35,300 nt of DNA from Herpetosiphonaceae bacterium. GTDB lineage: Bacteria > Chloroflexota > Chloroflexia > Chloroflexales > Kallotenuaceae. The stretch is from the NCBI GenBank assembly GCA_030147335.1, contig JASKZZ010000083.1, positions 1 to 35,300 of the forward strand, given 5' to 3'. Under the pieces are notes generated by a model. It was given only the letters and a program-made list of their open reading frames with translations, did not search any database and was not told the origin of the DNA. Positions 4,720 through 25,420 of the stretch are shown piece after piece. The position numbers and the translations under genes were made by a program. Every line of letters begins with the position of its first letter. Position 1 is the first letter of the stretch.

Positions 4720-7362
4720 GTGCGCTCGCTCATCTTACCCCGGTTGCGATCCTTGCTCGCGTTGCGTATGCCCCGGTCTTGGCTGCGGCTATCGCGAAGT
4801 GAACAGGCGCTGCTTCTTCTTTCATGGCTGTGCACCATGTTGATCCTGCCCGCGCAGCGTGCAGCAGCATGTAGTTGGGACGATGTCGGATGCACCTTCC
4901 AGAGCTTTAGCTACCCGTTATATCTTGGCGTAGCGAGCTCGATCTGGACCCTTGATCGGATGCTGCTCATGTTGACCTACCAGCTTGAGCATATGCGCGC
5001 ATGGCTGATTGAGGTTGTGTTTACATCAGCTTACCAGACGTTAGCCGAGGCGATCCGTCCGGGTCTTGCTCCGATTGCCACGATTGCTGTCATTATCGGC
5101 GTGCTTGCCTTTTTGATCATGCCCGTTTTCGGCAAAATCGAGGTCGTGAACATTCGACGTGCCCTGGTCTGGATCGTTATCGCACCGACGCTGCTCACTG
5201 TAAGTGGCGCATGGCTGGCCCAGGTTGAAACGTTCCGAACAAACATCGGCGGTGTGTTGTTCAATGCAGCAGCTGGCGCGGCAGCAGGTGATATCTTCGG
5301 CGCATCCGCAGGTGATATGCCGACAGAAGCTAATCTGCTGTATGCTTCGCCCAGCAATGCGTGTGGCTCGACCATTGAGCGAGCCTTTCCGATGGAAGCA
5401 GGCGGACAACCCGTGCCACAGATGGATGATCTGGCTGCAACAATGTTGTATGCCGACGCCGTCGACATTCATTGCCCACAAAAGCGTGAAAGTCAGCCAG
5501 GCCGCGGCGTATTGCCGCTCAAGTTTTTCCAGACGCCGGAACCTAACTACGCGGTTGACGGCGATATCGGAAATTTCAGCGATGCTGAACGCGCCGAAGC
5601 AATCTACAACATCCAGGAAGGCATTAATCGCCTGTTGCTTGGCATCATTCCGTGCGTGCTTGCCGTTTGTTTTGCCTTAATCCAGCTCATCTTCTCATTT
5701 GCGCTGGTTGCGATCTGGATCAGCCTCCCGATTGGCCTGTTGTTCGTTTTCTTCAACGAAACTGCCGGTGGCGTTACCGGTATGTTCCGCCGCGTCGTTG
5801 GTGTGCTCCAGGCCAGTTGGTCCGCCAGTCTGTTGATGGGCATCGTTTTTGCGGCCCTGATTGCGTCAGCAAGAACCGGGAGCGCGACGTCGTATGCCGG
5901 CTTGTCGATTGGCGGCATTTTGATGTCCATCTATGTCATGAAAAGTGCCGTTGAAACCCTGCTTACCAGCATGAAAACCATCAGCGCATCGATCAGCAGC
6001 GCGGCAGGACTGAGTGACGGCGGCACGTTCACCAAAGCGGCAGCTGGCGTGATGGTCGGTGGCGTAGCTGGCGCAGTTGGCGCAGTTGGCGTAACCATGG
6101 CCACATCGTCAAGCATGGCAACGTCGGGAATGGTTGCGTATCGCGCAAGTGGCGGCAATGGACGATACGCTGCCGCTGCCGCGCTCGGCCGGATCAAGCC
6201 GGTGGCCCGGTTAGGCGAAGTGGCATCCATGATGGGTATTCAGAACGAATTTACCGAGGGCATGTACGCTTCTCAACTTGCTGCCAAAAACAAAGATAGC
6301 GGCACGGCGTGGCGAAAAATGCGCGATCTTACGGTGAAAGATCAGACGAAACGGCTGGGTGATGGTACAACAACGCTAGCCGAGCGGGCCGAAGAGCGTA
6401 AAGTGCGCAGCCAGCTTAAGGATCATGAACCGTCGATTGACGCGTTTACCGCAGCTCGCAATCAATGGCGCGCTGTTGGACGGGGTCTTAGCAAAGCAGG
6501 CACAGCCGTTGAAGACGCGGTGCTTAATCCTGGACAAACGGCTCGCGCAGCCCTCAATATTGCCGGTAAACCGCTCGGTCCTGCCCGTCGCAACATTGCT
6601 GCGCTTCGCGCCGATGCGCAATCACCACACACATCTGGTGGGGCACTTCGTGCCACTGCGCGTGCTGCGTCGCGCGGCTCATTCCGTAACCACGATATGA
6701 TGGGTGTCGTGCTTAATCGGGGAGACAACGGTCCTACACTCACATATGTTGATCGTGTGGCGGATGAGCTTATTCCCGAATCAGCAGTAACCGAACGCGG
6801 AACGTTAGCGCAACGGGCTGAATGGCTACGGGATGGGCATATCGTCCAGCGAAATACTGACCGCACCTTTACGCACTGGGATCAGAAAGAAACCCTCGAA
6901 CCGGCTGTTGCAGAACGTGACGATGATGATGAAATCGTCGCGGCAGCGAGTGTTTCAGATGATGACGATACGACATTGATCCCTGTTGTCAATCCATCCA
7001 GTCCACGCCAACGTGCCTTGAGTCGTGCGCGCGTGAACTCAACGGCTCGGTCGCTTAACCAAGCGCCACGCGATGCGGCAGGCACACGGCGCCGCCCACG
7101 CGCCATGTTGCATGCCGAGCGCGAACAGCGTACCCACATCGCAACAACGCTGCGTGAAGAACAGGCGCTGCAGGCTGAAACCGCACGACGAGGCGCGCAA
7201 CGTGAACGAGCGCATCAGGTGCGTGCACGTGGACGAACCACGGCCGCACAGCGACGTGACCAACATCGGTCTGCTCCAGCCGTGCCCATTCGCAGGTTTG
7301 GGTCAACCCGTGCCTACCAGCAATCAATGAATCGCCATCTTAATCCACCAACCAACTTGTAA
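4720..7362 (+). CDS. Polytopic membrane protein, VirB6/TrbL-like candidate, with a long Arg-rich hydrophilic C-terminal tail
   Basis: The track ORF starts at TTG 4705, but GTG 4720 lies 9 nt after GGAG (4707-4710). At least 7 hydrophobic segments are present, e.g. IATIAVIIGVLAFLIMPVF, LLLGIIPCVLAVCFALIQLIFSFALVAIWISLPIGLLFVFF and SLLMGIVFAALIASA. The last ~400 aa are charged or disordered. The VirB6 call rests on topology and context only. Confidence 0.55.
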   Translation: MRSLILPRLRSLLALRMPRSWLRLSRSEQALLLLSWLCTMLILPAQRAAACSWDDVGCTFQSFSYPLYLGVASSIWTLDRMLLMLTYQLEHMRAWLIEVVFTSAYQTLAEAIRPGLAPIATIAVIIGVLAFLIMPVFGKIEVVNIRRALVWIVIAPTLLTVSGAWLAQVETFRTNIGGVLFNAAAGAAAGDIFGASAGDMPTEANLLYASPSNACGSTIERAFPMEAGGQPVPQMDDLAATMLYADAVDIHCPQKRESQPGRGVLPLKFFQTPEPNYAVDGDIGNFSDAERAEAIYNIQEGINRLLLGIIPCVLAVCFALIQLIFSFALVAIWISLPIGLLFVFFNETAGGVTGMFRRVVGVLQASWSASLLMGIVFAALIASARTGSATSYAGLSIGGILMSIYVMKSAVETLLTSMKTISASISSAAGLSDGGTFTKAAAGVMVGGVAGAVGAVGVTMATSSSMATSGMVAYRASGGNGRYAAAAALGRIKPVARLGEVASMMGIQNEFTEGMYASQLAAKNKDSGTAWRKMRDLTVKDQTKRLGDGTTTLAERAEERKVRSQLKDHEPSIDAFTAARNQWRAVGRGLSKAGTAVEDAVLNPGQTARAALNIAGKPLGPARRNIAALRADAQSPHTSGGALRATARAASRGSFRNHDMMGVVLNRGDNGPTLTYVDRVADELIPESAVTERGTLAQRAEWLRDGHIVQRNTDRTFTHWDQKETLEPAVAERDDDDEIVAAASVSDDDDTTLIPVVNPSSPRQRALSRARVNSTARSLNQAPRDAAGTRRRPRAMLHAEREQRTHIATTLREEQALQAETARRGAQRERAHQVRARGRTTAAQRRDQHRSAPAVPIRRFGSTRAYQQSMNRHLNPPTNL

Positions 7363-7430
7363 CAACCTGCGCTACAACAACGAAGCAGACAATGAAATCT
7401 TTTACCACAATCACAGGAGAGTACGGACCC

Positions 7431-9428
7431 ATGAGACGCGCTTTGACGAGGGGTGTTACCCTCGCCGTCCTGGTCCTTTCGCTGGTAGCGGCGGGCTGGG
7501 CTGGAGCGCCCATGTCCTACGCCTCCAACGACATGACCCCGACGGCCACACCATCCGGCACTTCAGAAACGATGGTCACAACCTTCGCGAACGATCCAGT
7601 GCCACAACCCGATGCGTCCGAGCCAAATGACGGACGTGAACAGGCGACGCTGATCACGGTCGGCCAACGCATTGACAAGCTATCGTTCTGGCCCGTTGAT
7701 GATATCGACATGTATGCCGTTGACATCAAGGAAAATCAGATCGGTCAGCTGCTGGCGCTCGATACCTACCAGCAACTTGGCCTCGACACAAAACTTCGCC
7801 TGTTTTTTCAAGACGGAGCGCTTGTTGGTGAAAATGACGACCGCGCGGCAACCGATACAAGCAGTCATATCGAAATTGTGATCGCTGCGCCGGGACGCTA
7901 CATCATTGAAGTGACCAACCAGAGCCAGACACGTCCGGAATTCAAGACCTATAGCCTTGAAACGTCATGGAAGGTCGCGAAGGCAAGCGCAGCACCCGCA
8001 GCAAGTAGCCCGGCAGCGCCGACTACAGCAGACAAGCTGGAGCCGAATAACACCTGGGAAACGGCACGTGAAGTTCCGGTTGGTGAAATCGTTAAGGAGT
8101 TGAACTTTGTATGCCCGGATGCGTCGGGCTGCGCCGATAACGACTTTATCAAGGTCGCGCTCAAGGGCGGCGTGTGCTATCGCGTCGCGACAAGCGAGCT
8201 GGCCAACGGCCTCGACACCAACGTGATCGTGTACGGGCCGAATCGAGACATGGACCCCCCGCTCGCCGGGAATGATGATGTTGCAGCGGGCGAGTTCCGA
8301 AGCGAAGCGCGCGTTTGCGTTCCAGAAAGCTATGGCGCGACAAACGGTTACATTTTGGTCGGTAACGCCGGCAACCGCTTGCCACCAGAACCAATTGCAA
8401 CGCGAACGTATGCGTTGCAGGTGCACGTAGAAACGCCGCCATCGCCATCACCGTCACCTGTAGCAACGCCCGAACCTGCCCAGGCGAGCGCGCCTTCTGC
8501 TCCAGTGAAACCGGCACCGGTTGCTTCTGAGTCAGAGCCAGCAAAGCCAGTGAAACCTGCGCCGGTAGCGGCAGCGCCTGCCGCTCCGGTAAAGCCGGCA
8601 CCAGCACAACCAGCACCAGCACAACCAGCACCAGCGCCGTCTGCAGTACCATCTGCATCCCCGGCGACTAGCAGCAGTGCTCCCGCAACCAGTGGTGTCT
8701 CGACCGATATGGTATCAAAGATCAATGATGCGCCGAAGGGCGATGCGCTGGTTGTCGTAGAAAAGACTAATCTCCACGTCGCGCCGGGATCACGTACCGA
8801 AGTAATTACGTCCTTGAAGATCGACGAGCAGGTTAAGCTGTTTGGCGAAGCACAGGGAGCGTGGGTTCGTGTGCAGCCGTACACCGCCGTTGTTCCTGGA
8901 TGGGTGTATGCGGCTGACCTGAAGCCAATTGAAGGAACAATACGCAGCAAGCCAAAGGTACAAACTGGTCCGGTGGACATCACCACGCCAAGCGGTGATG
9001 GGCAAGTTCCATCATTTGGCACACCATCTACAGACGGATCAACACAGCCTGTCGGCTCTGCGACGGTTGAGCAACTTGATCCGGTAGCACCAGAAGCACG
9101 GCAGGTACCGCAAGCAGGGATGCCGGTTGCGGTCACGGTTGAGGTCATCGCGGCGACGACCGAACGCAAGGCATCCTCGTCGGCAGAAGCTCCGCCGCGT
9201 CCCATTGCAGGTGTTCGTGTCCAGCTCGTCAATGCGTTCGGCGATGTCATTGCTGAAGGCGTAACCGCAATCAATGGTCGCATTACCCTATCAGCTGACT
9301 TACCACCAAAGACCGCTGTATATATTCAGATTCCGGCAACTGGCGTGCAAACGTTGGTCAGTCAGGACCGTATCGCAAGTGGTAACTCGGTTATGACAAT
9401 TGCACTTCCGCAGGCCGACGTTCGCTAA
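7431..9428 (+). CDS. Secreted multidomain surface protein: two PPC (pre-peptidase C-terminal)-like domains, PA-rich linker, SH3b-like domain, carboxypeptidase-regulatory-like domain
   Basis: The track ORF starts at 7392, but ATG 7431 follows GGAGA and opens a signal peptide (MRRALTRGVTLAVLVLSLVAAGWAGAP). EPNDGREQA...DDIDMYAV and EPNNTWETA...DNDFIKV match the PPC pattern (EPN...A...D.DWY.F). VVVEKTNLHVAPGS...GAWVRVQ...GWVYAADLKP is SH3b-like. VRVQLVNAFGDVIAEGVTAINGRITL lies at the C-terminus. Confidence 0.6.
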   Translation: MRRALTRGVTLAVLVLSLVAAGWAGAPMSYASNDMTPTATPSGTSETMVTTFANDPVPQPDASEPNDGREQATLITVGQRIDKLSFWPVDDIDMYAVDIKENQIGQLLALDTYQQLGLDTKLRLFFQDGALVGENDDRAATDTSSHIEIVIAAPGRYIIEVTNQSQTRPEFKTYSLETSWKVAKASAAPAASSPAAPTTADKLEPNNTWETAREVPVGEIVKELNFVCPDASGCADNDFIKVALKGGVCYRVATSELANGLDTNVIVYGPNRDMDPPLAGNDDVAAGEFRSEARVCVPESYGATNGYILVGNAGNRLPPEPIATRTYALQVHVETPPSPSPSPVATPEPAQASAPSAPVKPAPVASESEPAKPVKPAPVAAAPAAPVKPAPAQPAPAQPAPAPSAVPSASPATSSSAPATSGVSTDMVSKINDAPKGDALVVVEKTNLHVAPGSRTEVITSLKIDEQVKLFGEAQGAWVRVQPYTAVVPGWVYAADLKPIEGTIRSKPKVQTGPVDITTPSGDGQVPSFGTPSTDGSTQPVGSATVEQLDPVAPEARQVPQAGMPVAVTVEVIAATTERKASSSAEAPPRPIAGVRVQLVNAFGDVIAEGVTAINGRITLSADLPPKTAVYIQIPATGVQTLVSQDRIASGNSVMTIALPQADVR

Positions 9429-11919: not shown

Positions 11920-12480
11920 ATGGCCTACGAGCAACTTGAAGAAATACGATCCAGAAAACGCGAGAAGGTCGCCATGTTTTTGACAGCAGAAAACATGGGT
12001 GGGCTATTAATGGCAACGCTGCCCGTGTATATTGCCACAGCCCAATTTCAATCATTCTTTTTGCGCATGGTGTTGCTGGTGCTGGCGGCCGTGCTTGGTG
12101 TCGTCATCACGTTCGAGATCGGCGGACTCGCGCTCTACGAGCGACTTCTATGGCGACTCCGTGGGCTCATGCGAGTACAAACAGCGGGAGCGTTGATTAA
12201 TCCCGATCAATTTTCGGTTGTGCCCTCGACCACGTATGTGGAGGCACTTCCAGCTGACGGACCAATCAGTATGTTGCCGGTCATCAAGCACGACACGTCC
12301 TTTCGTGGTCGTCGTATTGGAGTACCGGAGATACCAAAGCAAAGTACCACAAATGTTTCCGAACGTTGCGCTGCATCCCAATTGTCGCCGTTCGATGAGG
12401 TAATGGAAGCTGAGGCGCAGCGAGAAACACGACAAGCAGCACAGTCAACAGCGGAGGAAGCAGTCTATGCAAACGTTTAA
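11920..12480 (+). CDS. PrgI/VirB3-like small membrane protein
   Basis: GGAGTGGAG RBS precedes the start. The N-terminal charged segment is followed by REKVAMFLTAENMGGLLMATLPVYI and a second TM, LRMVLLVLAAVLGVVITFEIGGLAL, the layout of PrgI-family proteins. The 3' end overlaps the VirB4-like start by 14 nt. Confidence 0.55.
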   Translation: MAYEQLEEIRSRKREKVAMFLTAENMGGLLMATLPVYIATAQFQSFFLRMVLLVLAAVLGVVITFEIGGLALYERLLWRLRGLMRVQTAGALINPDQFSVVPSTTYVEALPADGPISMLPVIKHDTSFRGRRIGVPEIPKQSTTNVSERCAASQLSPFDEVMEAEAQRETRQAAQSTAEEAVYANV

Positions 12481-14791
12481 GCTAGGCTCGTTTCCAATCG
12501 AGCAGATCAGTGATCTTCATGGTCTTGAATGGCGACTCGGTCAATGGTTTGCCGCACGATCCTATCCGGTCCGGCAGATTGCTGTGTCACGGCGCTTCGA
12601 TATGCGAACACCGATTAACAAGCTGACACAAACGCAAATCGACATGATGCGCTTGGCTCGCAAGGCTGAACCATTGCTTGTCGCTATTGAGGACCTGTTT
12701 GAACATGAACGGGGCAACCCGGCCGCTGTGCTCGCAGCGTATGACCAGGATGAGCAGCGCTGGTTAACACAACTTTTGCCGCAACACAAAGGACTTCAAG
12801 CATTTGTCCGCAATGTGTTTGCGGGAACGCAGGTTGCGGACGATGAAGCGCTCCGCTATTGGGCAGTTATTGCTGAACACATCACCATGTCAATCTGGCC
12901 GCTACCCTGGCAAAAAGAAATGACCCGCTTTTATCAAGCCCTTGAAGATCGCCACCTGCGCAGCATCGAGCACTATATGCTGACCTGGGAAGGCGGGGAT
13001 ATCAGCGGCCAGGCGATACAGGCACAACTGCGGAATGCGTTTGGACGTGACGTGGCGATTGTTGAGGGCACGCCGCCAATTGTTGGCTGCCCGTACACCG
13101 AACAATCAACCAAGCTTGTCCCGACCCAGCCTGGACACCCCTACTATGCTGTGCTTCACAGCTATGAGGTGCGTGGACAGTGGGACGCGACCACACTCCA
13201 TCCATTACTGGAAGGAAACTTTGACCTGTCAGTGGTTATTGACGTTGAAACATTGCCGCGGAACAAGGCAATGCGCGTTGCCGAAACGGCCCATGCAACA
13301 GCAAAAATGGTTCAGCGCGACGACAAGCTTATTGATACACGTGCCGCGCGTGTGTTCCAAGACTCTGAGCGCGTGATGCATGAGCTAAGTGTGCAGTCGC
13401 TGCACCTTGTTACAATCGCTGTGCTGGTATCCGGTGAAACCGAGCAGGCGCTTGAAGATAATATCGCCGAGGTCATCAGCCGCCTCGGCACAACATTGCG
13501 CTTGACCCGAGTTGCGGGAGCACAGGGCGAGCTTATCAAGTTATGGTCTCCCATTCCGACCAACCGCCTCGATATCCCGGCTAAGCCGTGGAACATGATG
13601 TCGCATGGTGTTGGCTGCTGCGCAGGCATTATTGGCTATCATCGAGCCAGCTCCACCAACGGTATTTTGTGGGGGCTTGACGCTGTTCGTCGAGCACCGC
13701 TATTTCACGACCCGTTTGCAAACAACCAGGCCGCGCACATGTGCATCCTGGGAAAAACCGGTTACGGGAAAACATGGTTCCTGAACCAGATTACGATGCG
13801 TGCGTCAGCCATTGCCGGATGGAAAATCATCGGCATCGACGCGTTCCGCAACGGCGAGCGCATTGAGCGTGCGGCGCGAGTGGGCGCCCGTTGCAACTGG
13901 ATTGGCCTTGAAAGCTCCGTCAACATTCTTGATATCGTGTACGACAAAGCAGAAGAAGGCGGCTGGATTGGTAAACAGGTGCAGCATGTCATTGGCCAGC
14001 TGGCCATGCTCCTGGGCGAGCCGGGAACAAACGCGAATGGGGAAGAAGAACTGTTGCCCCGGCGATTTTCGATTGCGGAGCGCGGCCTGCTCGACCAAGC
14101 GTTGTCGGCGATGTACAGCCACGTTGATCCGGATGCGCATGTCAGCAACATGCCGATTCTGAGTGACCTGATTGCGCTGCTTGAGGAGATCGGCGAGGAA
14201 GAAACTGATTGGTTGGCGCGTGATATGCGGTTGTTTCTAAGTGGGTCAATGGCAGCAAGTTTTGATGCAACCACCACCGTCGATTGGGATTTTGCCTCCG
14301 ATATCAACTATTTCGACTTTTCAAATGTGCCGGAAACGCTGCGCGCGTTTTACTACGGGCAGGCCGTTGGCGCGATTAACCGCTTCATGCGTGATCCGCA
14401 TCGTGACCTTTCCCGTCCCACGCTGCTCTTGATTGACGAGTTTCATTATGTCACCAAGACCGAGGCGGTGGCACGCATGGCAGCAGAGATCGCCAAAGTC
14501 GCGCGCAAGTACCGGCTGGCCGTTGTTCCGGTCGATCAAAACCCCGCGACCTTTTTGGACAACAAGTATGGGCTGTTTATTTTCGAGAACAGCACCGGCA
14601 AAGTGTTGTTTCACCTCGACGACCTTCCGGCACAGCGTATGGGCGACGCAATCAGCGACCTGACGCCGGATCACGTGGCATTTCTGTCGCAGGCGGTCGC
14701 CGGCCAGTCGATCATGATTTTCAACAATGATGTGTATGTCGCACATGTTGAAACCAATCCTAAAGAAACACGTGCGTTTGCAGGAAGTTAG
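12467..14791 (+). CDS. VirB4/TrsE/PrgJ-like type IV secretion ATPase
   Basis: GGAGGA RBS precedes the start. Walker A is ILGKTGYGKTWFLN and Walker B is PTLLLIDEFHYV, followed by RKYRLAVVPVDQNPATFL. The 774-aa length and its position after a VirB3-like gene both fit. Confidence 0.88.
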   Translation: MQTFKLGSFPIEQISDLHGLEWRLGQWFAARSYPVRQIAVSRRFDMRTPINKLTQTQIDMMRLARKAEPLLVAIEDLFEHERGNPAAVLAAYDQDEQRWLTQLLPQHKGLQAFVRNVFAGTQVADDEALRYWAVIAEHITMSIWPLPWQKEMTRFYQALEDRHLRSIEHYMLTWEGGDISGQAIQAQLRNAFGRDVAIVEGTPPIVGCPYTEQSTKLVPTQPGHPYYAVLHSYEVRGQWDATTLHPLLEGNFDLSVVIDVETLPRNKAMRVAETAHATAKMVQRDDKLIDTRAARVFQDSERVMHELSVQSLHLVTIAVLVSGETEQALEDNIAEVISRLGTTLRLTRVAGAQGELIKLWSPIPTNRLDIPAKPWNMMSHGVGCCAGIIGYHRASSTNGILWGLDAVRRAPLFHDPFANNQAAHMCILGKTGYGKTWFLNQITMRASAIAGWKIIGIDAFRNGERIERAARVGARCNWIGLESSVNILDIVYDKAEEGGWIGKQVQHVIGQLAMLLGEPGTNANGEEELLPRRFSIAERGLLDQALSAMYSHVDPDAHVSNMPILSDLIALLEEIGEEETDWLARDMRLFLSGSMAASFDATTTVDWDFASDINYFDFSNVPETLRAFYYGQAVGAINRFMRDPHRDLSRPTLLLIDEFHYVTKTEAVARMAAEIAKVARKYRLAVVPVDQNPATFLDNKYGLFIFENSTGKVLFHLDDLPAQRMGDAISDLTPDHVAFLSQAVAGQSIMIFNNDVYVAHVETNPKETRAFAGS

Positions 14792-14799
14792 ATTGCACC

Positions 14800-17289
14800 A
14801 TGTCACTACTTCGAACATCAACATTATGGTCTATTCAAGACCTGCCGCAAAAACTTACTGATCCTGAAGCTGGGTTCTTGAACGCCCTGCAACAGCACAT
14901 TGATCTTGCGGGTCAGGGTTTAATCACTGTCCTGATGCAGATTGGCACACAACAGAAATCCTATGTACGTGTGTACGGATGTGGATCGTGCCAAGTCGAG
15001 CGCTGTGTTGCCGGTTGTCGGGTCCGCCTACTGGAACGTGTTATCCGGTCCGGGTGGAAAGGAACATCACTCTCGCATGTATCACAGGGGCTGGTGGCGC
15101 GACCGTACACGCGGGTCTACATCGGCATGCCGATGTATGATGCCGAGCCGCTTGATGGAACACTCCTACACTCGTGGCAGGAGGCCCGGCTAACGCTCCA
15201 CTGGCACAAAGGCCGCATGCCTCAGCCTGAGCAAAAGTCACTTCTTCGCCACACACCAGGATTGCTGCGCAAACGAATCATGGTTAGTGCGGTGCTGGTG
15301 TTGGGCAAAGAAGGGCCGGATGACCCGCAGCTTATTTTCGGTTCGCGAAAATGGAAATTCGTCCCTGCGGACAAGCTTCACCTGCCGTTGCTCAATTGGT
15401 ATGGCGGTCCGGAGATTCGGGCGCCACGTCTGTTCATGGGCACGCCCAGTACCATCTCGCCCCATCTGTTACTTCCAGATCCACGTGACCCGCACACCAA
15501 TCCGGAGCCAGACCTACCGGATTTTGGAAACGTTCCACACGATAAAGCCGTGATCGCCCATGCGAATGCCACTGCGATCTCGCGCCAGTTGCATGAGGCA
15601 GGCGCGCGGGTGGAGTTTCTTGATCTAAATGGTGATCTGTGGACGGCAACACTGGCAGCGATTCATCCTGCGGGTATGCAATCATTTCTGACCGAGCTTA
15701 GCGCTGCCCATGCCGGTCTGTATGTTAAGAGTGTAGCGAAGGCTGTTGTGGGACTGCGCAACACATCTGAACACGTCCCTGCAATGCTGCCGCCGGTGCT
15801 CAAGCTGGGAACGTTGCGTGAAGGGCAAATCCGGTATCGACCGATCGGGAGCACCCATCACATGATTGTAAGTGGCCCGTCACTGGCCGGTATTCTAGCT
15901 GGCCTGGTCGCGCCACTGGTCGATGGCCGCTCGGATGTGCGAATTGGTGTCCTTGATGTCGCCGATGGCAAGATTGCGTCTGTTCTCGGAAACGTGCCGC
16001 GCCGGTTACCGACTGTTCGGGCCGATGATGAGCAAGAATTGCTTGGTGTGGTAAGCAGCGTCAACGGCACCGGCGTACCGGTGATGGTGATTGTGCATGC
16101 CAACGATGCCGAACGCTGCCGCAAAGCCGTTATCCCACTGATGCGAGCCGCCTCGTACCTTAATATCTCGCTGGTTATTGCAACTCATGATGAGGAAATT
16201 ATCCCGGAGCGTATACGCAATCGCGTGCCTGTGCTGCGCATTTCTAATCGACAGGCACACTGGGAATCACCATATGGCGCTTACTACGAGTGGGGCCGCA
16301 TGACCCCCTTGCGCCTGCCGTTCCGCGATCCCGAATTGCCGTGGTCGCTGCCGGACTCGGCAACAGTTCCGAATTTAATTGAACGTGATCAGTATTGGGT
16401 TACACCAGATCATCTGACTGACACACTTGTTCCAGGATTAAGAGAGCTTCTGGAAGAGCAATCGAAAGCAGATGGTAATACCGAATCAGAGGGCGAGAGC
16501 AAAACTCCGCCAAGTGATGCGTCGTCTGAGCAGAACGATGCAGTTGATGGTCCTGAAATCAAGCCGGTGGCCGAGCAAGCAAAGCCTGCCGTTCAGCTGT
16601 TTCGATTTGATGCAACCAACACACTAATAGTAGATGACGAGTTACTTGGGCCTGTGTTGCAATGGATGAATAGTCGAACAACTGAGCCGACGATTAGCAT
16701 CAAGCAGCTCATGACTCAATACAACATACCAAAAGAAGCTGCAACCCAGATTTTCGAGTCGCTTAAGGGCCGACGTATTACGAAACACGAAAAGCGGACG
16801 GGCCACTTGTACTACGAAACAGTTGCAGAAGCAATCAGCAATGGCCACCTAGCAGACGGACCGTGGGCGGTGCCTGTCGAGGTAGATCCGGTTGATGCGA
16901 CAGCTTCGCCAGGATTTGATAGCGACGCAGATGAAACAACGACGCAACCGGTAATGTCGGACGAGAACACTGTCCTTGAACACCATGCGGGAGCGATCGA
17001 TGAAGCCGCTCCCGATGACAACACCGTGGTAACTACAAATGGTGCACCTGTTCTCGTTGAGGGTGCCGGATTATGGCAACTAACCGGAGTACAGGCCGGT
17101 GCTGAAAACGCTGATGCTACAGCAACGCTTGAATTGGCTGAAACGCTTGATTTCGGTTTTGACCGTGAAGATGCGATGGAAACCAACGTCTGGGAAAGTG
17201 ACGCGCTGATTATTGAAACACACACACCGGTAGTTAGCACTGACGCGGATGGTCATATGAGACAAGATGAGACACGAGGTGCGCAATGA
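14800..17289 (+). CDS. FtsK/SpoIIIE-like protein with degenerate nucleotide-binding motifs, N-terminal Cys4 cluster and acidic C-terminal region
   Basis: The core region resembles the FtsK motor-domain layout (...LKLGTLREGQIRYRPIGSTHHMIVSGPSLAGILAGLVAPL ... GVPVMVIVHANDAERC ... ISLVIATHDEEIIPERIRNRVPVLRISNRQ). However, the P-loop reads GPSLAGIL (no Lys-Ser/Thr) and the Walker B position reads VIVHAND. The Cys cluster is CGSCQVERCVAGC. A putative winged-helix is TISIKQLMTQYNIPKEAATQIFESLKGRRIT. Confidence 0.45.
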   Translation: MSLLRTSTLWSIQDLPQKLTDPEAGFLNALQQHIDLAGQGLITVLMQIGTQQKSYVRVYGCGSCQVERCVAGCRVRLLERVIRSGWKGTSLSHVSQGLVARPYTRVYIGMPMYDAEPLDGTLLHSWQEARLTLHWHKGRMPQPEQKSLLRHTPGLLRKRIMVSAVLVLGKEGPDDPQLIFGSRKWKFVPADKLHLPLLNWYGGPEIRAPRLFMGTPSTISPHLLLPDPRDPHTNPEPDLPDFGNVPHDKAVIAHANATAISRQLHEAGARVEFLDLNGDLWTATLAAIHPAGMQSFLTELSAAHAGLYVKSVAKAVVGLRNTSEHVPAMLPPVLKLGTLREGQIRYRPIGSTHHMIVSGPSLAGILAGLVAPLVDGRSDVRIGVLDVADGKIASVLGNVPRRLPTVRADDEQELLGVVSSVNGTGVPVMVIVHANDAERCRKAVIPLMRAASYLNISLVIATHDEEIIPERIRNRVPVLRISNRQAHWESPYGAYYEWGRMTPLRLPFRDPELPWSLPDSATVPNLIERDQYWVTPDHLTDTLVPGLRELLEEQSKADGNTESEGESKTPPSDASSEQNDAVDGPEIKPVAEQAKPAVQLFRFDATNTLIVDDELLGPVLQWMNSRTTEPTISIKQLMTQYNIPKEAATQIFESLKGRRITKHEKRTGHLYYETVAEAISNGHLADGPWAVPVEVDPVDATASPGFDSDADETTTQPVMSDENTVLEHHAGAIDEAAPDDNTVVTTNGAPVLVEGAGLWQLTGVQAGAENADATATLELAETLDFGFDREDAMETNVWESDALIIETHTPVVSTDADGHMRQDETRGAQ

Positions 17290-18578
17290 GTAGCCACAGC
17301 AAAACTTCACAACCACTGGGAATGGGATTTGACAAAGCCCGTGGCAACAAGCCGGCGCATCCAGATGCGCCACGGTGGATACTCGCGATTATTAGCCTGG
17401 TCGTAGTCCTGATTGGCATATTCGGTGCTTCGATGGTGGAAGCCGTGGAACGCAACAGTGTCTCGTTCCAGGCATATATGCTTGAGCGCAGCACTGCTGT
17501 GAACAAGCTGGTCTGGTATTTCCAGATGGCTGCAATGGGCATTGGACTGCTTACAGCAATTGGCTATGTGTTGATTCCAGTTCGCTGGTGGTGGTGGCGA
17601 AAAACCATACGGGGATTTAGCGGTGAGTATATGGCTGTGGTTCTTCCCCGTCCCGACGGTAAGACCACGTCTACGAGTAATAATCCTGACGCTCCATTTG
17701 TATTCTGGGATCGCCTGTTCAAGATTATCGGACGTGCCAAGAATAAATCATCCAACGCATATCTCGCGGCAGAGCTGTGGGGGAGTGGAAGCGGTCGTGT
17801 CCAATGGGCGTTCTACCTGCCCTCAACTCTGCAAACAGAGCGCGAAGCCATCCGGCGCTTAATTACAGCTGAACGACCACAAGCACGCCTGGTCACGATG
17901 CCTGACCCTTTGGAAAAAGCGTTAAGCCTCGACCCAAGTGATCCAAATGACACGGGTGAGCGTTACTACGCCGGCGCAGTTCTCAACCTTCGAACGCGAG
18001 ATTTTTATCCGTTGCCGGTTGACGGACTGATGCTTCCTTCATTGGTCAGTACATTGCGACCGCGTACTGGAGTGCTAAGAAGTGGTGTTTCAGTCGTTGT
18101 CTCACCTGCAAGCTATCTATGGGCCAGACGAGTCAACCAACTTGTCCAACGATGGTTATATCACAGCCACGACTATAAATGGGACCAGCGCTTCGGTGAG
18201 GAAACAAAAGACATCAGGATGAAGGTTCAACAGAACCATGCTCGCACGTGCGTGCGCGTCCAGGTCATTGCTACAACCAAAGACGGAGCGGTAGCTGAGC
18301 GGGACGCCTTGATTACGTCATTGGAAAGCAGCGAAAGACAGTATAGCCTTACATCTCAGTCGCTTAAGGTTCGCAAAAAGATTGTGCTTCAGCTGCGCAA
18401 ACCTGCCCCGACGAAAAAACCCGGTGCCATTGAGGTGCCAGCACATATGCCTGCGGGGGGGCGGCCATCGGCTACTGACGTCGTGGTACGTGAAATTCCA
18501 GCCGAGTTTCGTGTGCGGGCTCCGTTCCGCCCTGACATTCGCAATTTGTTCATCATCCCGTTCCCTCCATTTTCTTAG
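17286..18578 (+). CDS. Two-TM membrane protein with about 330-aa cytoplasmic domain; candidate membrane partner of the downstream coupling ATPase
   Basis: ATGA overlap with the upstream gene. TMs are WILAIISLVVVLIGIFGASMV and VWYFQMAAMGIGLLTAIGYVLIPV. It is in the same reading frame as 18600..20792, separated only by two TAG codons (18576, 18585). Confidence 0.55.
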   Translation: MSSHSKTSQPLGMGFDKARGNKPAHPDAPRWILAIISLVVVLIGIFGASMVEAVERNSVSFQAYMLERSTAVNKLVWYFQMAAMGIGLLTAIGYVLIPVRWWWWRKTIRGFSGEYMAVVLPRPDGKTTSTSNNPDAPFVFWDRLFKIIGRAKNKSSNAYLAAELWGSGSGRVQWAFYLPSTLQTEREAIRRLITAERPQARLVTMPDPLEKALSLDPSDPNDTGERYYAGAVLNLRTRDFYPLPVDGLMLPSLVSTLRPRTGVLRSGVSVVVSPASYLWARRVNQLVQRWLYHSHDYKWDQRFGEETKDIRMKVQQNHARTCVRVQVIATTKDGAVAERDALITSLESSERQYSLTSQSLKVRKKIVLQLRKPAPTKKPGAIEVPAHMPAGGRPSATDVVVREIPAEFRVRAPFRPDIRNLFIIPFPPFS

Positions 18579-18599: not shown

Positions 18600-20792
18600 A
18601 TGCCTGGTTTAGTAGATTTAGTGGCTCGCCCAACCGTTTGTTCATCTGGTGAAGTTACACAGATGTGGGCTATGCCTGGTGCCGAGTTAGATCAGATGGT
18701 GGAGTGGGAATCATGTACGTTTTTGCCGCCACCGCAGTTCGCCTTTCTACCGAATTATACGGAGCCTCGCACCCGCAATGCGGATGCGATGCCGACCATT
18801 GGTGATTACCCTGTCCGGCTAGCAGAGGCCGAGCGGCCTGATGGTTCGACCCAGTTCGTTGGGATGCTTGCCCGTGACTTCTTAACGGCGATGACCATTA
18901 TGGCGCCGATGGGTACCGGCAAGACGCATCTTGCAAAGATTATTCTGAGCGAGATGCTGCGTATAGGCGCAGGGGTCTCCGTCACTGACTTCAAAGCCGA
19001 CCTTGTTACAGATATGCTCGACACGATGGTGCCCCGTGACAAGGAAACCACCACCTGGGTCGTTGATATGGCCGATACCGCTTGGCCGGTCGCCATTAAT
19101 CCGCTGATGCAGCCTGGAGTTAACCCCCGCGATGCCGGCGATCGCGGCCGCATGGCTGATGGTCTCCAGTCGCTCATTAGCCGGTTTGATGATTCGTTCG
19201 CTCAGGGCGCGGGTATGCAAGAGTTTGCGCGTAACGCGACGCTGGCGTTGGTCGAAGCGGAGCCAACGCCCGACCTGTTGAAACTACACCGCTTCATGGT
19301 ATCCGAGCCGTACCGCATGAGCTTAGTGCCTCATATGCACGACGGTATGGTGCGTGAGTTCTGGGCGCGCGATTTCCCCGCACGTGGCGAGCAGTCGAAA
19401 ACGAGTGTCGATGCACTTGTTCGACGTTTCGGCATGTTCTTGATGAACCCCGTCATCCGGCACGTGGTCTGCCGTCCGCGCACAACGCTTGATTATCGTA
19501 AAGCAATGGACCAGGGGTATATTGTGCTCGCGAGCGTGCCGGTCGAGACGATCGGCAACAAAATCGGCGGTTTTGCTGCCATGATGATCCAGGAATTGTT
19601 GAATGTAGCTGCGTTCTCACGCGCTGCGGACAAGGTGCCAGATGAAGAACGTCGATTTTTCCTGAACCTGATCGACGAGTTCCAACAGGCCGTTAACTCC
19701 GGCGATCCCGCAGCAGTTGCAACCCAGATTTCAAAACTCCGTGCAATGGGTGTTGGCAGTGTGTATCTGTATCAGTCGAGCGCACAAATTCCGCCGGATC
19801 TCCGAGCGCAAATTGAATCAAACGTCGCTAATGCCATTTGTCTGGGAGCTATGGGTGGCGATATCCCGACACTGATGCAACGATGGGGCACACATCTTAC
19901 CGATGCCGACTTTGCAGGAATGCGGCGGCGCGAAGATATGTACATGCAAGTTCAGGTCAACGAGCAAAAAACACCACCTTTCCGTGCTCGCTCGTTGCCA
20001 CTATGGCCGACGCTAGAGCCGTTGCCTCTGGGTCCAACTCCACGCGAAGATTGGCGTGACATCCGCGCGCCCATCGCTGAAGATTGGCATGCCTGGATGG
20101 ACGAAAAGATCAAGGGCATCCAGGATTACGAGCGCGCGGCCACAATCCAGCGCGATGAGGCGAGAGCGTTGGAGTCGCAGGCAAACTTGCTGGAGCGTGG
20201 TCAAAAACAGGCCGCCGACGTCGCCCGCGACCAGTACCAAAAAACACGGAGCGAGTGGCCAAACGACGCGCAAGCCTTGCGAGATCGGGCCTTTATGATC
20301 AAGCGTACAGCAAACGATCTCGAGCGAGCACCGTTGCAGTTGCTGATCCAGGCACCCGGCCGCATTTTTGACCTGTATCGTGACCGCAGTGCCCAGCACC
20401 GGAAAGCACAACACCAATTTATTAACGCCAACCCAGCTGCGATCCCTGATACCCGCCAGCGTATTACCTGGCTTAGCCGTCTTGCCCTTGCCGAACCGCA
20501 GGTCGAAGTTGCAGCCTATGTCGAGCGCACCATTGCCCAACTTGCGGGGGTGGAACCGGTTGTCGAAGTTACGAAAGGTGGGAAGGACAAGGAGCAATCG
20601 TCGCGAGTAAGCCAGATCATCGCGCCTGGTCAAATCAAACAAACCAGCGACCAGGGGCCGTCTCACTTAAGGCGATTGGGCGGCGATATTCAAACAAAGA
20701 TTGCAGAAGATCAACGAAGTGAGCAGCAGGCAATTGAGGACGTTACACCGGTGTGGAATCCTAATGAGGACACCGAAGACATGAGTTTCTAA
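18600..20792 (+). CDS. VirD4/TraG/TraD-like type IV coupling protein ATPase, no N-terminal TM helices
   Basis: AGGA RBS precedes the start. Walker A is IMAPMGTGKTHLAK and Walker B is RFFLNLIDEFQQAV, followed by KLRAMGVGSVYLYQSSAQI (T4CP-like Q-S..Q motif). The first ~100 aa contain no hydrophobic helix. The C-terminus has a coiled-coil and an acidic end. Confidence 0.8.
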   Translation: MPGLVDLVARPTVCSSGEVTQMWAMPGAELDQMVEWESCTFLPPPQFAFLPNYTEPRTRNADAMPTIGDYPVRLAEAERPDGSTQFVGMLARDFLTAMTIMAPMGTGKTHLAKIILSEMLRIGAGVSVTDFKADLVTDMLDTMVPRDKETTTWVVDMADTAWPVAINPLMQPGVNPRDAGDRGRMADGLQSLISRFDDSFAQGAGMQEFARNATLALVEAEPTPDLLKLHRFMVSEPYRMSLVPHMHDGMVREFWARDFPARGEQSKTSVDALVRRFGMFLMNPVIRHVVCRPRTTLDYRKAMDQGYIVLASVPVETIGNKIGGFAAMMIQELLNVAAFSRAADKVPDEERRFFLNLIDEFQQAVNSGDPAAVATQISKLRAMGVGSVYLYQSSAQIPPDLRAQIESNVANAICLGAMGGDIPTLMQRWGTHLTDADFAGMRRREDMYMQVQVNEQKTPPFRARSLPLWPTLEPLPLGPTPREDWRDIRAPIAEDWHAWMDEKIKGIQDYERAATIQRDEARALESQANLLERGQKQAADVARDQYQKTRSEWPNDAQALRDRAFMIKRTANDLERAPLQLLIQAPGRIFDLYRDRSAQHRKAQHQFINANPAAIPDTRQRITWLSRLALAEPQVEVAAYVERTIAQLAGVEPVVEVTKGGKDKEQSSRVSQIIAPGQIKQTSDQGPSHLRRLGGDIQTKIAEDQRSEQQAIEDVTPVWNPNEDTEDMSF

Positions 20793-20802: not shown

Positions 20803-21243
20803 ATGTCACTCGTCTATGCCCCAGTTATGTCTCCTGGTGCTGCACTAGCTGCATTACGTGCATCTCGACATATGACTCAGGAAGAATTAGTCAAGCTAAG
20901 TGGCTTAGGACGTAGAACTATTCAGAGGTTGGAGAACGGTGAAAATGCTCGGCCGAGGCGGGCGTCGCTGGTTGGTCTCGCGCGTGCATTTGGACTAACA
21001 GTTGATCAACTGAAACATGATCTGGGATTAGCTCCTTTTGGCTCTCAACGGCCGGAAACACCGACAAACAAACAAGCGGAAAGCTCTCGATTTCCTTATG
21101 GACCACGTTTGGATCGTATAGCTCTTATGTTTCTTAATCTTTCATCGGCTCAACAGGACTATGTTGAGAGTGTAATTCTGAATTTACACAGCGCACGCTA
21201 TCAGCCAGATCCGAGGGACATCGAAAAGGATGCAAATAAATGA
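20803..21243 (+). CDS. XRE-family helix-turn-helix transcriptional regulator
   Basis: AAGGA RBS precedes the start. MTQEELVKLSGLGRRTIQRLENGENARPRRASLVGLARAFGLTVDQL is a canonical HTH_3 (Cro/C1) domain. Confidence 0.85.
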   Translation: MSLVYAPVMSPGAALAALRASRHMTQEELVKLSGLGRRTIQRLENGENARPRRASLVGLARAFGLTVDQLKHDLGLAPFGSQRPETPTNKQAESSRFPYGPRLDRIALMFLNLSSAQQDYVESVILNLHSARYQPDPRDIEKDANK

Positions 21244-22340
21244 ACACAGTACCTCGACACCTGACACGTGGCCAGCTTGACGATAACGCAACACGGATCG
21301 ATTGGGAAATCATGCGCATGTTATGGATATGTCATTTTGCATCACCGCACCAGTTAACCAGGCTCGTACTTGGAACAGCATCTCACTCCAATCGAGTGAA
21401 AATGAATGCGATTTTGCTGCGACTCCGTGCATCGACAAAAGTTTGGTACGAGCCTAAAAATTTATTCAGGGGGAGTACTGATAACAAGGAACATTTCAAC
21501 GGAATGGTATCGGGAGGTCGATTTTACGGTCTGACCCAAGCGGGAAAGAACCTCATGAGCGACATTGCTCCTGACTTCATGCCCGAACTCCTGCAAAGCC
21601 ACTGTACTGTTCGTGAGTTCTATTTTTCAATGGCAGGCCGAAATTCCATGCGCCATTCTGGTCACTATACAGAATTCTGCACGCGTTTTATCACTGAGAT
21701 GCGCCACCATCCACGCACACTTGGAATATTCATAGACACTGAGTGTACACGCTTGGGCAGCCACCTGCGTATGGATGGACTGCTTCGGCACAGATTCTTG
21801 AAAAATCTTCAGCCTAATGTTCCGAATACCGACGTTATGCCGTGGTATGTACCGTGGCTACTTGGACTACGCTCGCCAGGTGATCCTAATGTGATTGACC
21901 GCACATACTCTATTGAGATTGACGAGAACACGGAAGAACTCGAGATCATCGTACGGAAAGCCCAAAATTACAAACGAACGTTTCTTGGTGGGATGGATCG
22001 TCCAAACGTACCCCGAGTTGCGTGGGACAGTATTTTATGCCCTTCCGGGGCGCAACTACCACCCGAGGCGCGGCAAAAATACTTTCCCATTCCTGTCTTT
22101 GTTGTCCCAGGACCGCAGCGGTTGGCGAATGTACTGGCAGCATGGCAGATGGGATGGCCCAACGGACCATTTCTTGGGACACATTGGGGATTACTTAACC
22201 AAGCACAGTCGATAACAAATGCACCATACCTCAACATCAATGGTCAGTGGATAAATTTGATTGGCAACTCCCATGGCTATCAAGGACAACTACCGACACC
22301 GGCACGTATAACGCTTGACCCTCGAGGCAAACACGTATGA
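21240..22340 (+). CDS. Replication-relaxation (Replic_Relax, PF13814-like) family protein
   Basis: ATGA overlaps occur at both ends (21240-21243 and 22337-22340). The N-terminal pattern TRIDWEIMRMLWICHFASPHQLTRLVLG...NRVKMNAILLRLRASTKVWYEP matches the family's winged-helix opening (D..IL..L...R.lT..QL..L.F ... L..L). Assignment is by eye. Confidence 0.55.
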   Translation: MNTVPRHLTRGQLDDNATRIDWEIMRMLWICHFASPHQLTRLVLGTASHSNRVKMNAILLRLRASTKVWYEPKNLFRGSTDNKEHFNGMVSGGRFYGLTQAGKNLMSDIAPDFMPELLQSHCTVREFYFSMAGRNSMRHSGHYTEFCTRFITEMRHHPRTLGIFIDTECTRLGSHLRMDGLLRHRFLKNLQPNVPNTDVMPWYVPWLLGLRSPGDPNVIDRTYSIEIDENTEELEIIVRKAQNYKRTFLGGMDRPNVPRVAWDSILCPSGAQLPPEARQKYFPIPVFVVPGPQRLANVLAAWQMGWPNGPFLGTHWGLLNQAQSITNAPYLNINGQWINLIGNSHGYQGQLPTPARITLDPRGKHV

Positions 22341-22792
22341 CGACATCAGCAAATGTTCCAGCACTCTTTGACTCAGCAACGAATAGCGAGTGGTTAGTGC
22401 TTTTGCATCAGGGGCTCGATTCTCTCCGACGTTCACACGAATTAACTCAGCAACAACTAGCTGAGGCTTCGGGTCTGAATCGAGAAACGATTGGCAGAAT
22501 TGAACGTGGACTGGTTCGCACAAAGCTGCAGCAAGCAACAGTAGCAGCTCTTGCCGCAGCCTTTAAGTGTTCAACATTATTTGAGTTTCGGGAGGCCTTA
22601 CAGCGATCACGGAATTTAGGTGTTATTCGAAATACAACAGCACTCCAGATCGATGCGCGATCTCATCGACTCCTTCTGGCTTTTCAAGAACTTTCGCCTG
22701 CACAGAAGGACACCGCCGAAGCTGTTGTTATGCGCTTACTTGCAAATGTGCGGGCGCACCGAGTCGGCGAGGAAAAGCTGTGCACCATGTAG
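22337..22792 (+). CDS. XRE-family helix-turn-helix transcriptional regulator (second copy)
   Basis: LTQQQLAEASGLNRETIGRIERGLVRTKLQQATVAALAAAFKCS is an HTH_3 domain. The gene is translationally coupled to the upstream gene. Confidence 0.85.
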   Translation: MTTSANVPALFDSATNSEWLVLLHQGLDSLRRSHELTQQQLAEASGLNRETIGRIERGLVRTKLQQATVAALAAAFKCSTLFEFREALQRSRNLGVIRNTTALQIDARSHRLLLAFQELSPAQKDTAEAVVMRLLANVRAHRVGEEKLCTM

Positions 22793-24339: not shown

Positions 24340-24360
24340 TCACAACTCGCAACAACAAAA

Positions 24361-24393
24361 CAGCACGGGTCGCATGACCCGTGCTGTTTTGTT
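24361..24393 (+). terminator. Rho-independent terminator ending the second (transfer) operon
   Basis: cagcacgggtc-gcat-gacccgtgctg is a perfect 11-bp stem, followed by ttttgtt. Confidence 0.85.
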
Positions 24394-24897
24394 AAAACTC
24401 CAACCGCATTCCACCAGCTAGGAGCAATCGCCGAGCATCAGTTCTGCCTCATTATGCTTTAGGGGAGCATGTCCTTCATGCCATAGGCTTCGTTGTTGTG
24501 GGCATCCAGCTTTTATCTTCCTCAAGCATTGACGTAATCGGCCTTGAAGTGATGCTTAGTAAACAAATGATGATGTGGCAGAAATGCTTAGGCGTATCCT
24601 GTGCAACTATACAGAGCAATACCCCACACCCGACGACGACTAAATATACATTTCTTCACCTCGATACCTACAGTGTAGCCACCTGTTGCTGTTTGGATAT
24701 CCCACGGTCGACCACTGGATAGAAGTACGTACCACAACTGGTCTATGCCGGTTAGCCGTTGTTATTTCATCTAATGACCTAATCCAGCGGTAAAAATGGT
24801 CAAAACACTTTACACTTGACAAAAGTCCTCAAAATCACAAATCCACCACAAGATGCTGTATGGCATCCGACATAGGTAGCATTTTGGGAAATATGTG

Positions 24898-24948
24898 ATA
24901 AAGCGCCAAATAAAGGGCCAAATAAAGCGCCAAATAAAGCGCCACAAC
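24898..24948. repeat. 12-bp tandem repeat AAGCGCCAAATA, about 4 copies
   Basis: The copies are aagcgccaaata / aagggccaaata / aagcgccaaata / aagcgccacaac starting at 24901, preceded by ata. They are contiguous with no spacers. Confidence 0.9.
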
Positions 24949-25020
24949 GGCAGTACTGATTTTTTTCCGCCTGGGGAGCCGCCAAACCGGCATTTGGGGG
25001 GTCCCACATGTCTTAATAGG

Positions 25021-25331: not shown

Positions 25332-25420
25332 GCCTGCATCGTGTGGGTGATGCGGTGGTGACAATGCCGACCGGCGGGGTGGCGGGACAGCGGTGCGGAG
25401 ATGGTCGTGGTGGAGCGATT

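Follow-up and report, generated by a model that had tools for sequence, protein, structure and literature searches.

A remote FtsK/SpoIIIE-like protein with degenerate Walker motifs in a putative conjugation operon of a Chloroflexota bacterium

The stretch of DNA considered here (hereafter, the window) comprises 35,300 nucleotides (nt) from Herpetosiphonaceae bacterium of the phylum Chloroflexota (contig JASKZZ010000083.1, assembly GCA_030147335.1). Between the genes for a VirB4 ATPase and a VirD4-like coupling protein, the window contains an open reading frame (ORF) of 829 amino acids (aa), which runs on the + strand from the ATG at 14800 to the stop at 17289. Overall, we interpret its product as a soluble, non-catalytic derivative of FtsK/SpoIIIE and as a constant part of a conjugative type IV secretion system (T4SS) of the monoderm VirB4/VirD4 type in Chloroflexota, and we assign this reading a probability of about 0.6. 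That its central ATPase domain is dead and derives from FtsK/SpoIIIE, as proposed in an initial annotation made from the sequence alone, seems to us highly probable. The layout of the protein, with positions in the window, is as follows.

14800..17289, + strand: the whole 829-aa ORF, composed of a Cys4 N-domain, a small alpha/beta domain, a dead FtsK/SpoIIIE-like domain, an acidic linker, a winged helix and an acidic tail
14800..15504, + strand: N-terminal domain, residues 1-235, without a Pfam match and modelled with a predicted local distance difference test (pLDDT) score of ~90
14980..15018, + strand: Cys4 cluster C61-x2-C64-x4-C69-x3-C73, family consensus CxGCxxxRCxPGC
15538..15765, + strand: small alpha/beta domain of the model, residues 247-322, at the position of the FtsK alpha domain
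15787..16269, + strand: degenerate FtsK/SpoIIIE-like RecA-fold domain, residues 330-490, supported by hhalign, Foldseek and conservation
15874..15897, + strand: Walker A remnant G359-P-S-L-A-G364-I365-L366
16084..16104, + strand: Walker B remnant M429-V-I-V-H-A434-N435
16303..16344, + strand: conserved post-core motif T502-x-LRLPxRDP-x3-W515, a block of 55% identity
16432..16599, + strand: acidic, poorly conserved linker, residues 545-600, probably disordered
16612..16869, + strand: winged helix-turn-helix (wHTH), residues 605-690, at the position of FtsK gamma
16870..17286, + strand: acidic C-terminal tail, residues 691-829, predicted to be disordered

The ATG lies 9 nt past the stop of the upstream 774-aa ORF (12467-14791), and the stop overlaps the start of the following ORF (ATGA at 17286); because of this short gap and this overlap, the gene looks like a member of an operon. 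All of the peptides quoted in the initial annotation are present in the translation: CGSCQVERCVAGC (residues 61-73), LTLHWHKG (131-138), THHMIVSGPSLAGILAGLVAPL (352-373), VMVIVHANDAERC (428-440) and ISLVIATHDEEIIPERIRNRVPVLRISNRQ (456-485). In a hydropathy scan, the only stretches that stood out were strands and helices buried in the core of the RecA fold; the scan detected no transmembrane (TM) segment, nor an N-terminal membrane anchor of the kind typical of FtsK, SpoIIIE, TcpA and EssC.

Relatives of the protein are few. An index of 5.8 billion proteins contained only eight, at 35-57% identity, and those that bear a name are labelled "hypothetical protein [Chloroflexota bacterium]". A genome scan found relatives in an uncultured Chloroflexia metagenome-assembled genome, while tblastn against 72,556 plasmids returned no match. 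A profile search of 1.84 billion representatives added divergent carriers of the central region (P0010-P0015 and P0025). The resulting family, whose members are ~35% identical overall, was represented by an alignment of 16 sequences for the central region, 15 of which cover the Walker A site; pairwise identity by region was computed over 11 full-length members.

No intact GxxGxGK[ST] or [AG]xxxxGK[ST] is present in the target or the 14 family members closest to it, and a P-loop preserved elsewhere in the protein was looked for in vain in the target and its relatives. The position of the FtsK motif GTTGSGKS is occupied in this family by G359-x4-G364. Each of the 15 members that cover the site has Ile, Val, Met or Thr instead of the Walker A Lys and Leu, Ile or Val instead of the Ser/Thr, which bears out the earlier reading of the P-loop as GPSLAGIL with Ile-Leu in place of Lys-Ser/Thr. 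When the family is aligned with FtsK, hhalign opens a 3-residue gap at Walker A. The structural model has a strand at residues 355-358, a 4-residue loop and helix alpha-1 starting at 363; since the strand ends at 358 and the helix begins at 363, the modelled P-loop is about three residues too short. The Walker B acidic pair had been described as degenerate (HAND), and indeed Ala (A434) stands invariably in place of the Asp throughout the family. The catalytic Glu position holds Asn, Thr or Ala in the clade of the target and Glu or Asp in 11 of the 16 members. The ATQRP segment reads AT-HDEE in the target and xxP-SED in other members. Thus, the degenerate motifs are conserved among the orthologues. 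We infer from the sequences that the central domain cannot hydrolyse ATP, and it probably cannot bind ATP either.

The loss of catalytic residues was not accompanied by a general decay of the domain. Mean pairwise identity amounts to 50% in the FtsK-like core and 55% in the post-core LRLPxRDP block, compared with 42% in the N-domain, 42% in the small alpha/beta domain, 38% in the wHTH and 16% in the linker, and the motor-like module has 26 invariant positions. Being the most conserved part of the protein, the dead domain appears to be under strong constraint rather than decaying.

The relationship to FtsK/SpoIIIE emerged from profile-profile comparison. Our reference profile was built from 18 FtsK/SpoIIIE sequences taken from real genes. 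Chromosomal members were FtsK of E. coli K-12, beta-, gamma- and alphaproteobacterial FtsKs and Micromonospora FtsK. Those of mobile elements were drawn from a plasmid collection and came from Niallia, Tolypothrix, Hymenobacter, Enterococcus, Clostridium perfringens (TcpA type), Paenibacillus, Streptomyces, Bacillus cereus and Rhodococcus. Plasmid-derived genes were used since a search for homologues of E. coli FtsK gave only sequences at least 76% identical, which are too uniform for a diverse profile. Against this reference, the central domain (residues 325-520, 16 sequences) reached an hhalign score of 47.2 over 148 columns (Prob 87.9%, P 3.2e-6). By comparison, 200 column shuffles scored 13.4 +/- 2.2 (maximum 21.0), 200 shuffles of ten-column blocks scored 15.2 +/- 2.3 (maximum 23.2) and the reversed target alignment scored 10.8. 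The resemblance to the FtsK motif order, already recognised in the initial annotation, is therefore far beyond chance.

The alignment spans the pre-Walker-A segment LGxxxxG, Walker A, the DVRxxxxD strand, Walker B and LxRxAxxxxIxLVxAT, ending at IKxNxP. Diverse profiles of VirB4 (TrwK, F TraC, PrgJ, TcpF and six local sequences) and VirD4 (TrwB, F TraD, PcfC and six local sequences) gave background scores with the central domain, 13.6 and 15.6, respectively. These same two sets scored 99 and 59 against FtsK/SpoIIIE, yet over only ~67 columns around Walker B. Since the alignment of the target is long and independent of the Walker motifs, with VirB4 and VirD4 at background, we consider its match specific to FtsK/SpoIIIE. 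The signal was retained (48.5) when the nine mobile-element-type FtsK/SpoIIIE sequences were used alone.

Structure prediction provided a second, independent route. A first AlphaFold run, on the full-length protein with nine sequences, yielded a pLDDT of ~30 over residues 350-430 and was useless for the question of fold. A second run, restricted to residues 1-560 and based on an alignment of 73 sequences (A2), gave a mean pLDDT of 85.4, with most of the central domain above 90. In this model, the central domain starts with a beta-loop-alpha unit and continues with alternating beta and alpha elements. Its top Foldseek match in the PDB was the cytoplasmic domain of EssC (5fv0_B, E 4.4e-5), followed by a chain of the ESX-3 translocon (6umm_E, E 1.5e-4); the latter match may cover the EccC DUF region. 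KaiC C1, BcsE, DnaC/DnaB, RadA and RecA came next (E 2e-4 to 3e-3), and VirB4, TrwB and FtsK proper were all absent from the top 50 PDB matches. In a library of viral models, compact high-ranking matches included a protein labelled "DNA translocase FtsK" from a phage (E 9e-6, TMt 0.40) as well as A32-like packaging ATPases. The RecA-like fold predicted for residues ~330-490 is thus firmly supported, and FtsK/SpoIIIE is the best-matching family by both routes, in keeping with the fold put forward earlier. As the structural margin is modest, the assignment to FtsK rather than to RecA-like proteins in general rests mainly on hhalign.

The winged-helix-like segment noticed at the outset corresponds to a wHTH at residues 605-690. 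By Foldseek, it matched FtsK gamma (2j5p; prob 0.99, TMt 0.64) as one of many wHTHs, and by hhalign it aligned in register with FtsK gamma over 51 columns, weakly (Prob 26%, P 7e-4). Pfam gave no match to the gamma domain PF09397 in the protein. The FtsK-gamma-like nature of the wHTH is therefore suggestive only. Residues 247-322, at the place of the FtsK alpha domain, were not recognised as such when compared with an alignment of that FtsK domain (PF17854; hhalign 17.6, Prob 1.6%). The tail (residues 691-829) proved as acidic as had been described, with 22% D+E, 2% K+R and a net charge of -28. The HWH tripeptide in LTLHWHKG, listed initially as a feature, cannot be maintained as a motif, given that only W135 is conserved among orthologues; the idea of an HUH endonuclease that it might evoke was rejected on the same grounds.

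The N-terminal Cys4 cluster reported earlier is present and belongs to a much larger family (relatives P0016-P0157, loci L021-L023) than the central domain. It is invariant in the alignment of orthologues (A1), at least 90% conserved in the 73 sequences of A2 and present in most of 157 relatives. Presumably it forms a metal site, with either Zn or Fe-S. The N-domain alone occurs in more than 150 representative clusters, in proteins of 200-560 aa that lack any Pfam domain and also the FtsK-like module. The two of these shorter relatives whose contigs were examined (P0047 and P0021) occupy the same T4SS slot as the target: in both loci, the gene follows a ~780-aa VirB4 and precedes a 1170-1215-aa protein and then Replic_Relax. 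A dead-motor module was looked for in the neighbours of Cys4 proteins lacking it, and none was found. The C-termini of the shorter Cys4 proteins showed weak, positionally consistent matches to the wHTH of the target (22 of 57 at E < 1). The 73-sequence alignment of the N-domain had no profile similarity to VirB4, VirD4 or FtsK. Chains of the VirB4-containing R388 complex that resembled the N-domain were marginal matches from the poor first model and were not confirmed. An apparently intact Walker A (AGPGTGKS) in the distant relative P0021 was taken for a chance occurrence, as it lies in a Pro/Ala-rich linker of a protein without an FtsK-like domain. The Cys4 family has no prior annotation and looks like a fixed subunit of such T4SSs.

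Several observations weigh against our interpretation. hmmscan with Pfam and NCBIfam assigned the protein to no family, even with a threshold of E <= 0.1, so that PF01580, the FtsK_SpoIIIE family, gave no match, although profile-profile and fold comparisons do detect an FtsK-like domain. A PHROGs hmmscan produced one weak, meaningless match, and phmmer and family-profile hmmsearch against all PDB sequences yielded nothing relevant. A plain hidden Markov model comparison of the target with FtsK/SpoIIIE gave just 4-9 bits. Nine closely related chromosomal FtsKs used alone scored only 21, which probably reflects the low diversity of that profile. In the model-based search, FtsK proper is missing from the top 50 matches, and KaiC, RadA and RecA lie within ~10-fold of EssC. 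Besides, the protein lacks a TM anchor and a detectable alpha domain, and its wHTH matches gamma weakly. The acidic catalytic-Glu position in 11 of 16 members makes residual or trans-acting chemistry conceivable. Finally, the second FtsK/SpoIIIE protein of the clostridial plasmid pCW3, TcpB, is dispensable for transfer (PMC6137059). Judged by the profile comparison, the protein is a remote homologue of FtsK/SpoIIIE, but not a member by the threshold of Pfam itself.

Could the central region instead be a generic RecA/ASCE-fold pseudo-ATPase of the KaiC/RadA/DnaB/BcsE kind, without FtsK descent, in which the motif order merely reflects the shared fold? The closeness of KaiC C1, BcsE, DnaC/DnaB, RadA and RecA to EssC in the structure search would fit such a view, as would the silence of Pfam and the low score of the chromosomal profile. 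Yet the two best PDB matches both belong to the FtsK/SpoIIIE family, equally diverse VirB4 and VirD4 profiles remain at background, the gamma-like wHTH lies where FtsK would have it, and the 148-column alignment takes in FtsK-specific segments outside the Walker motifs (LGxxxxG, DVRxxxxD, LxRxAxxxxIxLVxAT and IxxRxP). We regard a generic origin as improbable. A still more improbable origin is duplication of the upstream gene, which would make the protein a degenerate VirB4 paralogue with a VirB4-like N-domain and a decayed VirB4 ATPase. Its gene does lie directly downstream of virB4, and the top Foldseek matches of the first model were inner-membrane-complex chains of R388 (8rtd_h, 8rtb_B and 7o41_A; E ~4e-3, prob 0.96-0.99), including a TrwK/VirB4-containing complex. 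That model, however, had a pLDDT of ~30 in the ATPase-like region, and no VirB4 chain entered the top 50 with the confident one. Both the N-domain and the central domain scored only 12-17 (Prob <=0.3%) against local and diverse VirB4 profiles, and the protein has no intact Walker motifs. Nor does it belong with VirD4/TrwB, considering hhalign scores of 13-16 and the absence of a TM segment and Walker motifs; the VirD4 role is filled by the products of 17286-18578 and 18600-20792.

Two further alternatives accept the FtsK-like ancestry and differ in what the domain does now. It might still be enzymatically relevant, through non-canonical nucleotide binding or through trans-acting residues, such as an arginine finger, that regulate the coupling-protein ATPase in a hetero-oligomer. 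Such a role would suit the catalytic Glu position, still acidic in most members, and the invariant R345, R402, R449, R475, R505 and R509, but it is unlikely in view of the Walker A loop, shortened and devoid of Lys and Ser/Thr in every member, and of the invariant Ala at the Walker B Asp; a comparable domain, the DUF domain of EccC5, does not bind ATP (PMC11154593). Alternatively, the region may be what is left of an FtsK-like coupling protein that was once active and became redundant beside the VirD4-like ATPase; it would then have lost any function, so that only the Cys4 cluster and the wHTH matter. Most Cys4-domain relatives do without the motor module, two of them demonstrably in the same slot, and the dispensability of TcpB points the same way. 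Nevertheless, an ORF that is intact in all full-length members and a module that has stayed the best-conserved part of the protein while the linker drifted to 16% identity leave such a relic hardly credible. Overall, a non-catalytic FtsK/SpoIIIE derivative, retained as a component of the T4SS, agrees best with these observations, and we file the protein as a remote, degenerate derivative of that family because its defining catalytic features fail.

The genes surrounding the target in the operon are listed below.

11920..12480, + strand: 186-aa membrane protein with a weak SCO6880-family match, conserved upstream of VirB4
12467..14791, + strand: divergent VirB4 ATPase with an intact Walker A, GKTGYGKT
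17286..18578, + strand: 430-aa protein with two N-terminal TM segments
18600..20792, + strand: 730-aa VirD4-like coupling-protein ATPase with the Walker A GTGKT
20803..22792, + strand: an HTH regulator, Replic_Relax (a putative relaxase) and a second HTH regulator

The VirB4 gene matched NCBIfam VirB4 models at 7e-31 and 3e-17, below the cut-off, and its profile aligned with TrwK/TraC/PrgJ/TcpF with an hhalign score of 125 (Prob 98%). The coupling-protein ATPase scored 44.9 over 289 columns against TrwB/TraD/PcfC. In related elements, its counterpart is a fused protein of 1170-1215 aa (11911-15525 in L021, 11309-14956 in L023). The 430-aa protein is homologous to the N-part of these fusions (hhalign Prob 88%), and the 730-aa ATPase matches their C-part (BLAST 4e-58); for this reason, we conclude that the coupling protein is split in two in the window. 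The initial annotation was thus right in placing the gene between VirB4 and the coupling protein, with the refinement that one 430-aa ORF, the detached N-part of the coupling protein, precedes the ATPase. Split coupling proteins co-occur with dead-motor Cys4 proteins and fused ones with motor-less Cys4 proteins, an association drawn from only five compared loci. Two homologous loci, the longest ones, share the order VirB4, target, TM protein, ATPase, HTH and Replic_Relax; on the shorter L003 contig, VirB4, the target and the ATPase are present, but no gene of ~400 aa was called. In plasmids of Paenibacillus (L016, 1162-2987) and Bacillus cereus (L018, 973-2785), an FtsK/SpoIIIE-domain gene stands directly before a gene of the replication-relaxation family, the same relaxase-type family that is found downstream of the coupling ATPase in the window.

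Upstream, the operon encodes an NlpC/P60 cell-wall hydrolase (2288-3550), an 885-aa protein without known domains (4705-7362) and a 678-aa protein that matches SH3_3 and PPC weakly (7392-9428). These genes fit the channel, hydrolase and adhesin set of a monoderm-type T4SS. Downstream, there is a non-coding, repeat-rich stretch of 1.6 kb (24340-25918). It includes four 12-bp iterons, ATAAAGCGCCAA, at 24898-24944; a 27-bp sequence, TTCGAAGTTCGAATGAACTTCGAGACA, duplicated perfectly in tandem (x2) and containing the palindromic core TTCGAAGTTCGAA, at 25099-25152; and three 12-bp xTGTAATACA repeats at 25801-25845, directly before a transposase gene. We regard this stretch as a candidate for parC, ori or oriT, to which the wHTH might bind. 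An actin-like segregation gene of the ParM type (ALP_N + MreB-like_C), followed by a 151-aa ORF, occupies 27211-28760, and actin-like homologues also follow the conjugation module in L001 and L023; the gene suggests a plasmid-like or partition-competent element. Three DDE transposase genes were found at 25918-27105 (+), 29082-30341 (-) and 30512-31855 (-), one of the DDE_5 type and two of the DDE_Tnp_1/IS4-like type, and one of the three has inserted so as to separate the actin-like gene from the repeat region. Probably, these genes mark a border of the element or a part of it that has been disrupted. Beyond them, a WD40 beta-propeller protein (32962-34059, -) and a lipase-like protein (34246-35163, -) are encoded, which probably belong to the host or to cargo.

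How might a dead motor serve conjugation? By analogy with known systems, it is tempting to suppose that the dead domain would act as a structural or oligomerisation platform, like the DUF/D2/D3 domains of EccC/EssC, while the gamma-like winged helix would bind either DNA of the element or a protein of the relaxosome, much as FtsK-gamma binds KOPS and TraB binds clt. The Cys4 N-domain, which shorter relatives in the same gene slot carry as well, may dock the protein to the T4SS ATPases. In this manner, the protein would link the DNA to be transferred with VirB4 and the two-part VirD4-like coupling protein. We put this specific adaptor mechanism forward tentatively, giving it somewhat less than an even chance.

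If our overall interpretation is true, dead FtsK-like domains serve as structural or regulatory modules in type IV conjugation as well as in type VII protein secretion, and the example comes from Chloroflexota, a phylum whose mobile elements have hardly been characterised. The analysis also provides the first domain-level annotation for a family labelled only "hypothetical" and gives annotation pipelines an example of a remote FtsK/SpoIIIE homologue missed by libraries of hidden Markov models. Practical consequences are modest as long as the function is a proposal. Non-binding FtsK-like domains in type VII secretion systems (T7SSs) and a second FtsK/SpoIIIE protein beside a VirB4-like ATPase in pCW3 are already known. 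Literature searches for such an architecture in Chloroflexota found nothing, and in particular no description of a free-standing, catalytically dead FtsK-type domain that is joined to both a Cys4 domain and a gamma-like wHTH and conserved in a T4SS of this phylum with VirD4-type coupling. The architecture, termed non-standard in the initial annotation, is therefore unusual, yet it has precedents in TcpA/TcpB of pCW3, with their VirB4-like ATPase, and in the non-binding FtsK-like domains of EccC/EssC.

The tcp locus of pCW3 from Clostridium perfringens resembles the system described here in being a monoderm T4SS with a second, smaller FtsK/SpoIIIE protein, TcpB, beside the coupling protein and the VirB4-like TcpF. 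Unlike the target, TcpB has an intact Walker A (GEMGVGKT), lacks a Cys4 domain and is readily recognised as FtsK/SpoIIIE (hhalign 113). Moreover, the coupling protein of pCW3, TcpA, is FtsK-like, whereas that of the window is VirD4-like, and direct comparison of the target with TcpA and TcpB gave background hhalign scores of 12-13. The same plasmid encodes TcpK, a wHTH protein that binds oriT (PMC6137059). Along with TraM of F and PcfF of pCF10, TcpK is one of the small DNA-binding factors bridging oriT or the relaxosome to the coupling protein, which matches the role proposed for our wHTH; none of them has an ATPase-derived or Cys4 domain, and the analogy is functional only.

FtsK, SpoIIIE and Streptomyces TraB share with the target the beta-domain motif order and the succession of a RecA-like domain, a linker and a C-terminal winged helix. 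The winged helices of FtsK gamma and TraB read specific 8-bp DNA motifs, KOPS and clt, respectively. In the target, by contrast, the catalytic residues are lost, no TM anchor or detectable alpha domain is present, and a 235-aa Cys4 N-domain and a long acidic tail are added.

The best structural matches of the target come from EccC/EssC of the T7SS, whose DUF/D2/D3 domains combine a RecA fold of the FtsK type with Walker motifs that depart from the canonical form. The DUF domain of EccC5 has an FtsK-like fold with a Walker A one residue short, Val-Leu in place of Lys-Thr/Ser and an extended helix; it does not bind ATP, and a structural role was proposed for it (PMC11154593). Ile-Leu stands at the same positions in the target, where the loop is ~3 residues shorter than in FtsK. 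A Walker B mutation of a DUF domain abolished secretion by ESX-3, and DUF domains appear pivotal for secretion (PMC11154593). In EccC/EssC, however, the dead domains are fused to an active D1 ATPase in one membrane-anchored polypeptide serving protein secretion, whereas the target is a soluble protein with a single dead domain, a Cys4 domain and a wHTH, encoded in the operon of a DNA-conjugation T4SS. One might go further and see in it the equivalent, in a T4SS, of the regulatory tiers of pseudo-ATPase domains in EccC: a dead FtsK-type ring stacked on or intercalated with the VirD4-like hexamer, with a winged helix like those of FtsK-gamma and TraB reading a DNA motif of the element and a Cys4 N-domain defining a widespread, hitherto undescribed family of Chloroflexota-type T4SS subunits. 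We consider this a long shot, but, if true, a T4SS transferring single strands would be guided by a sequence-reading module from double-strand DNA pumps.

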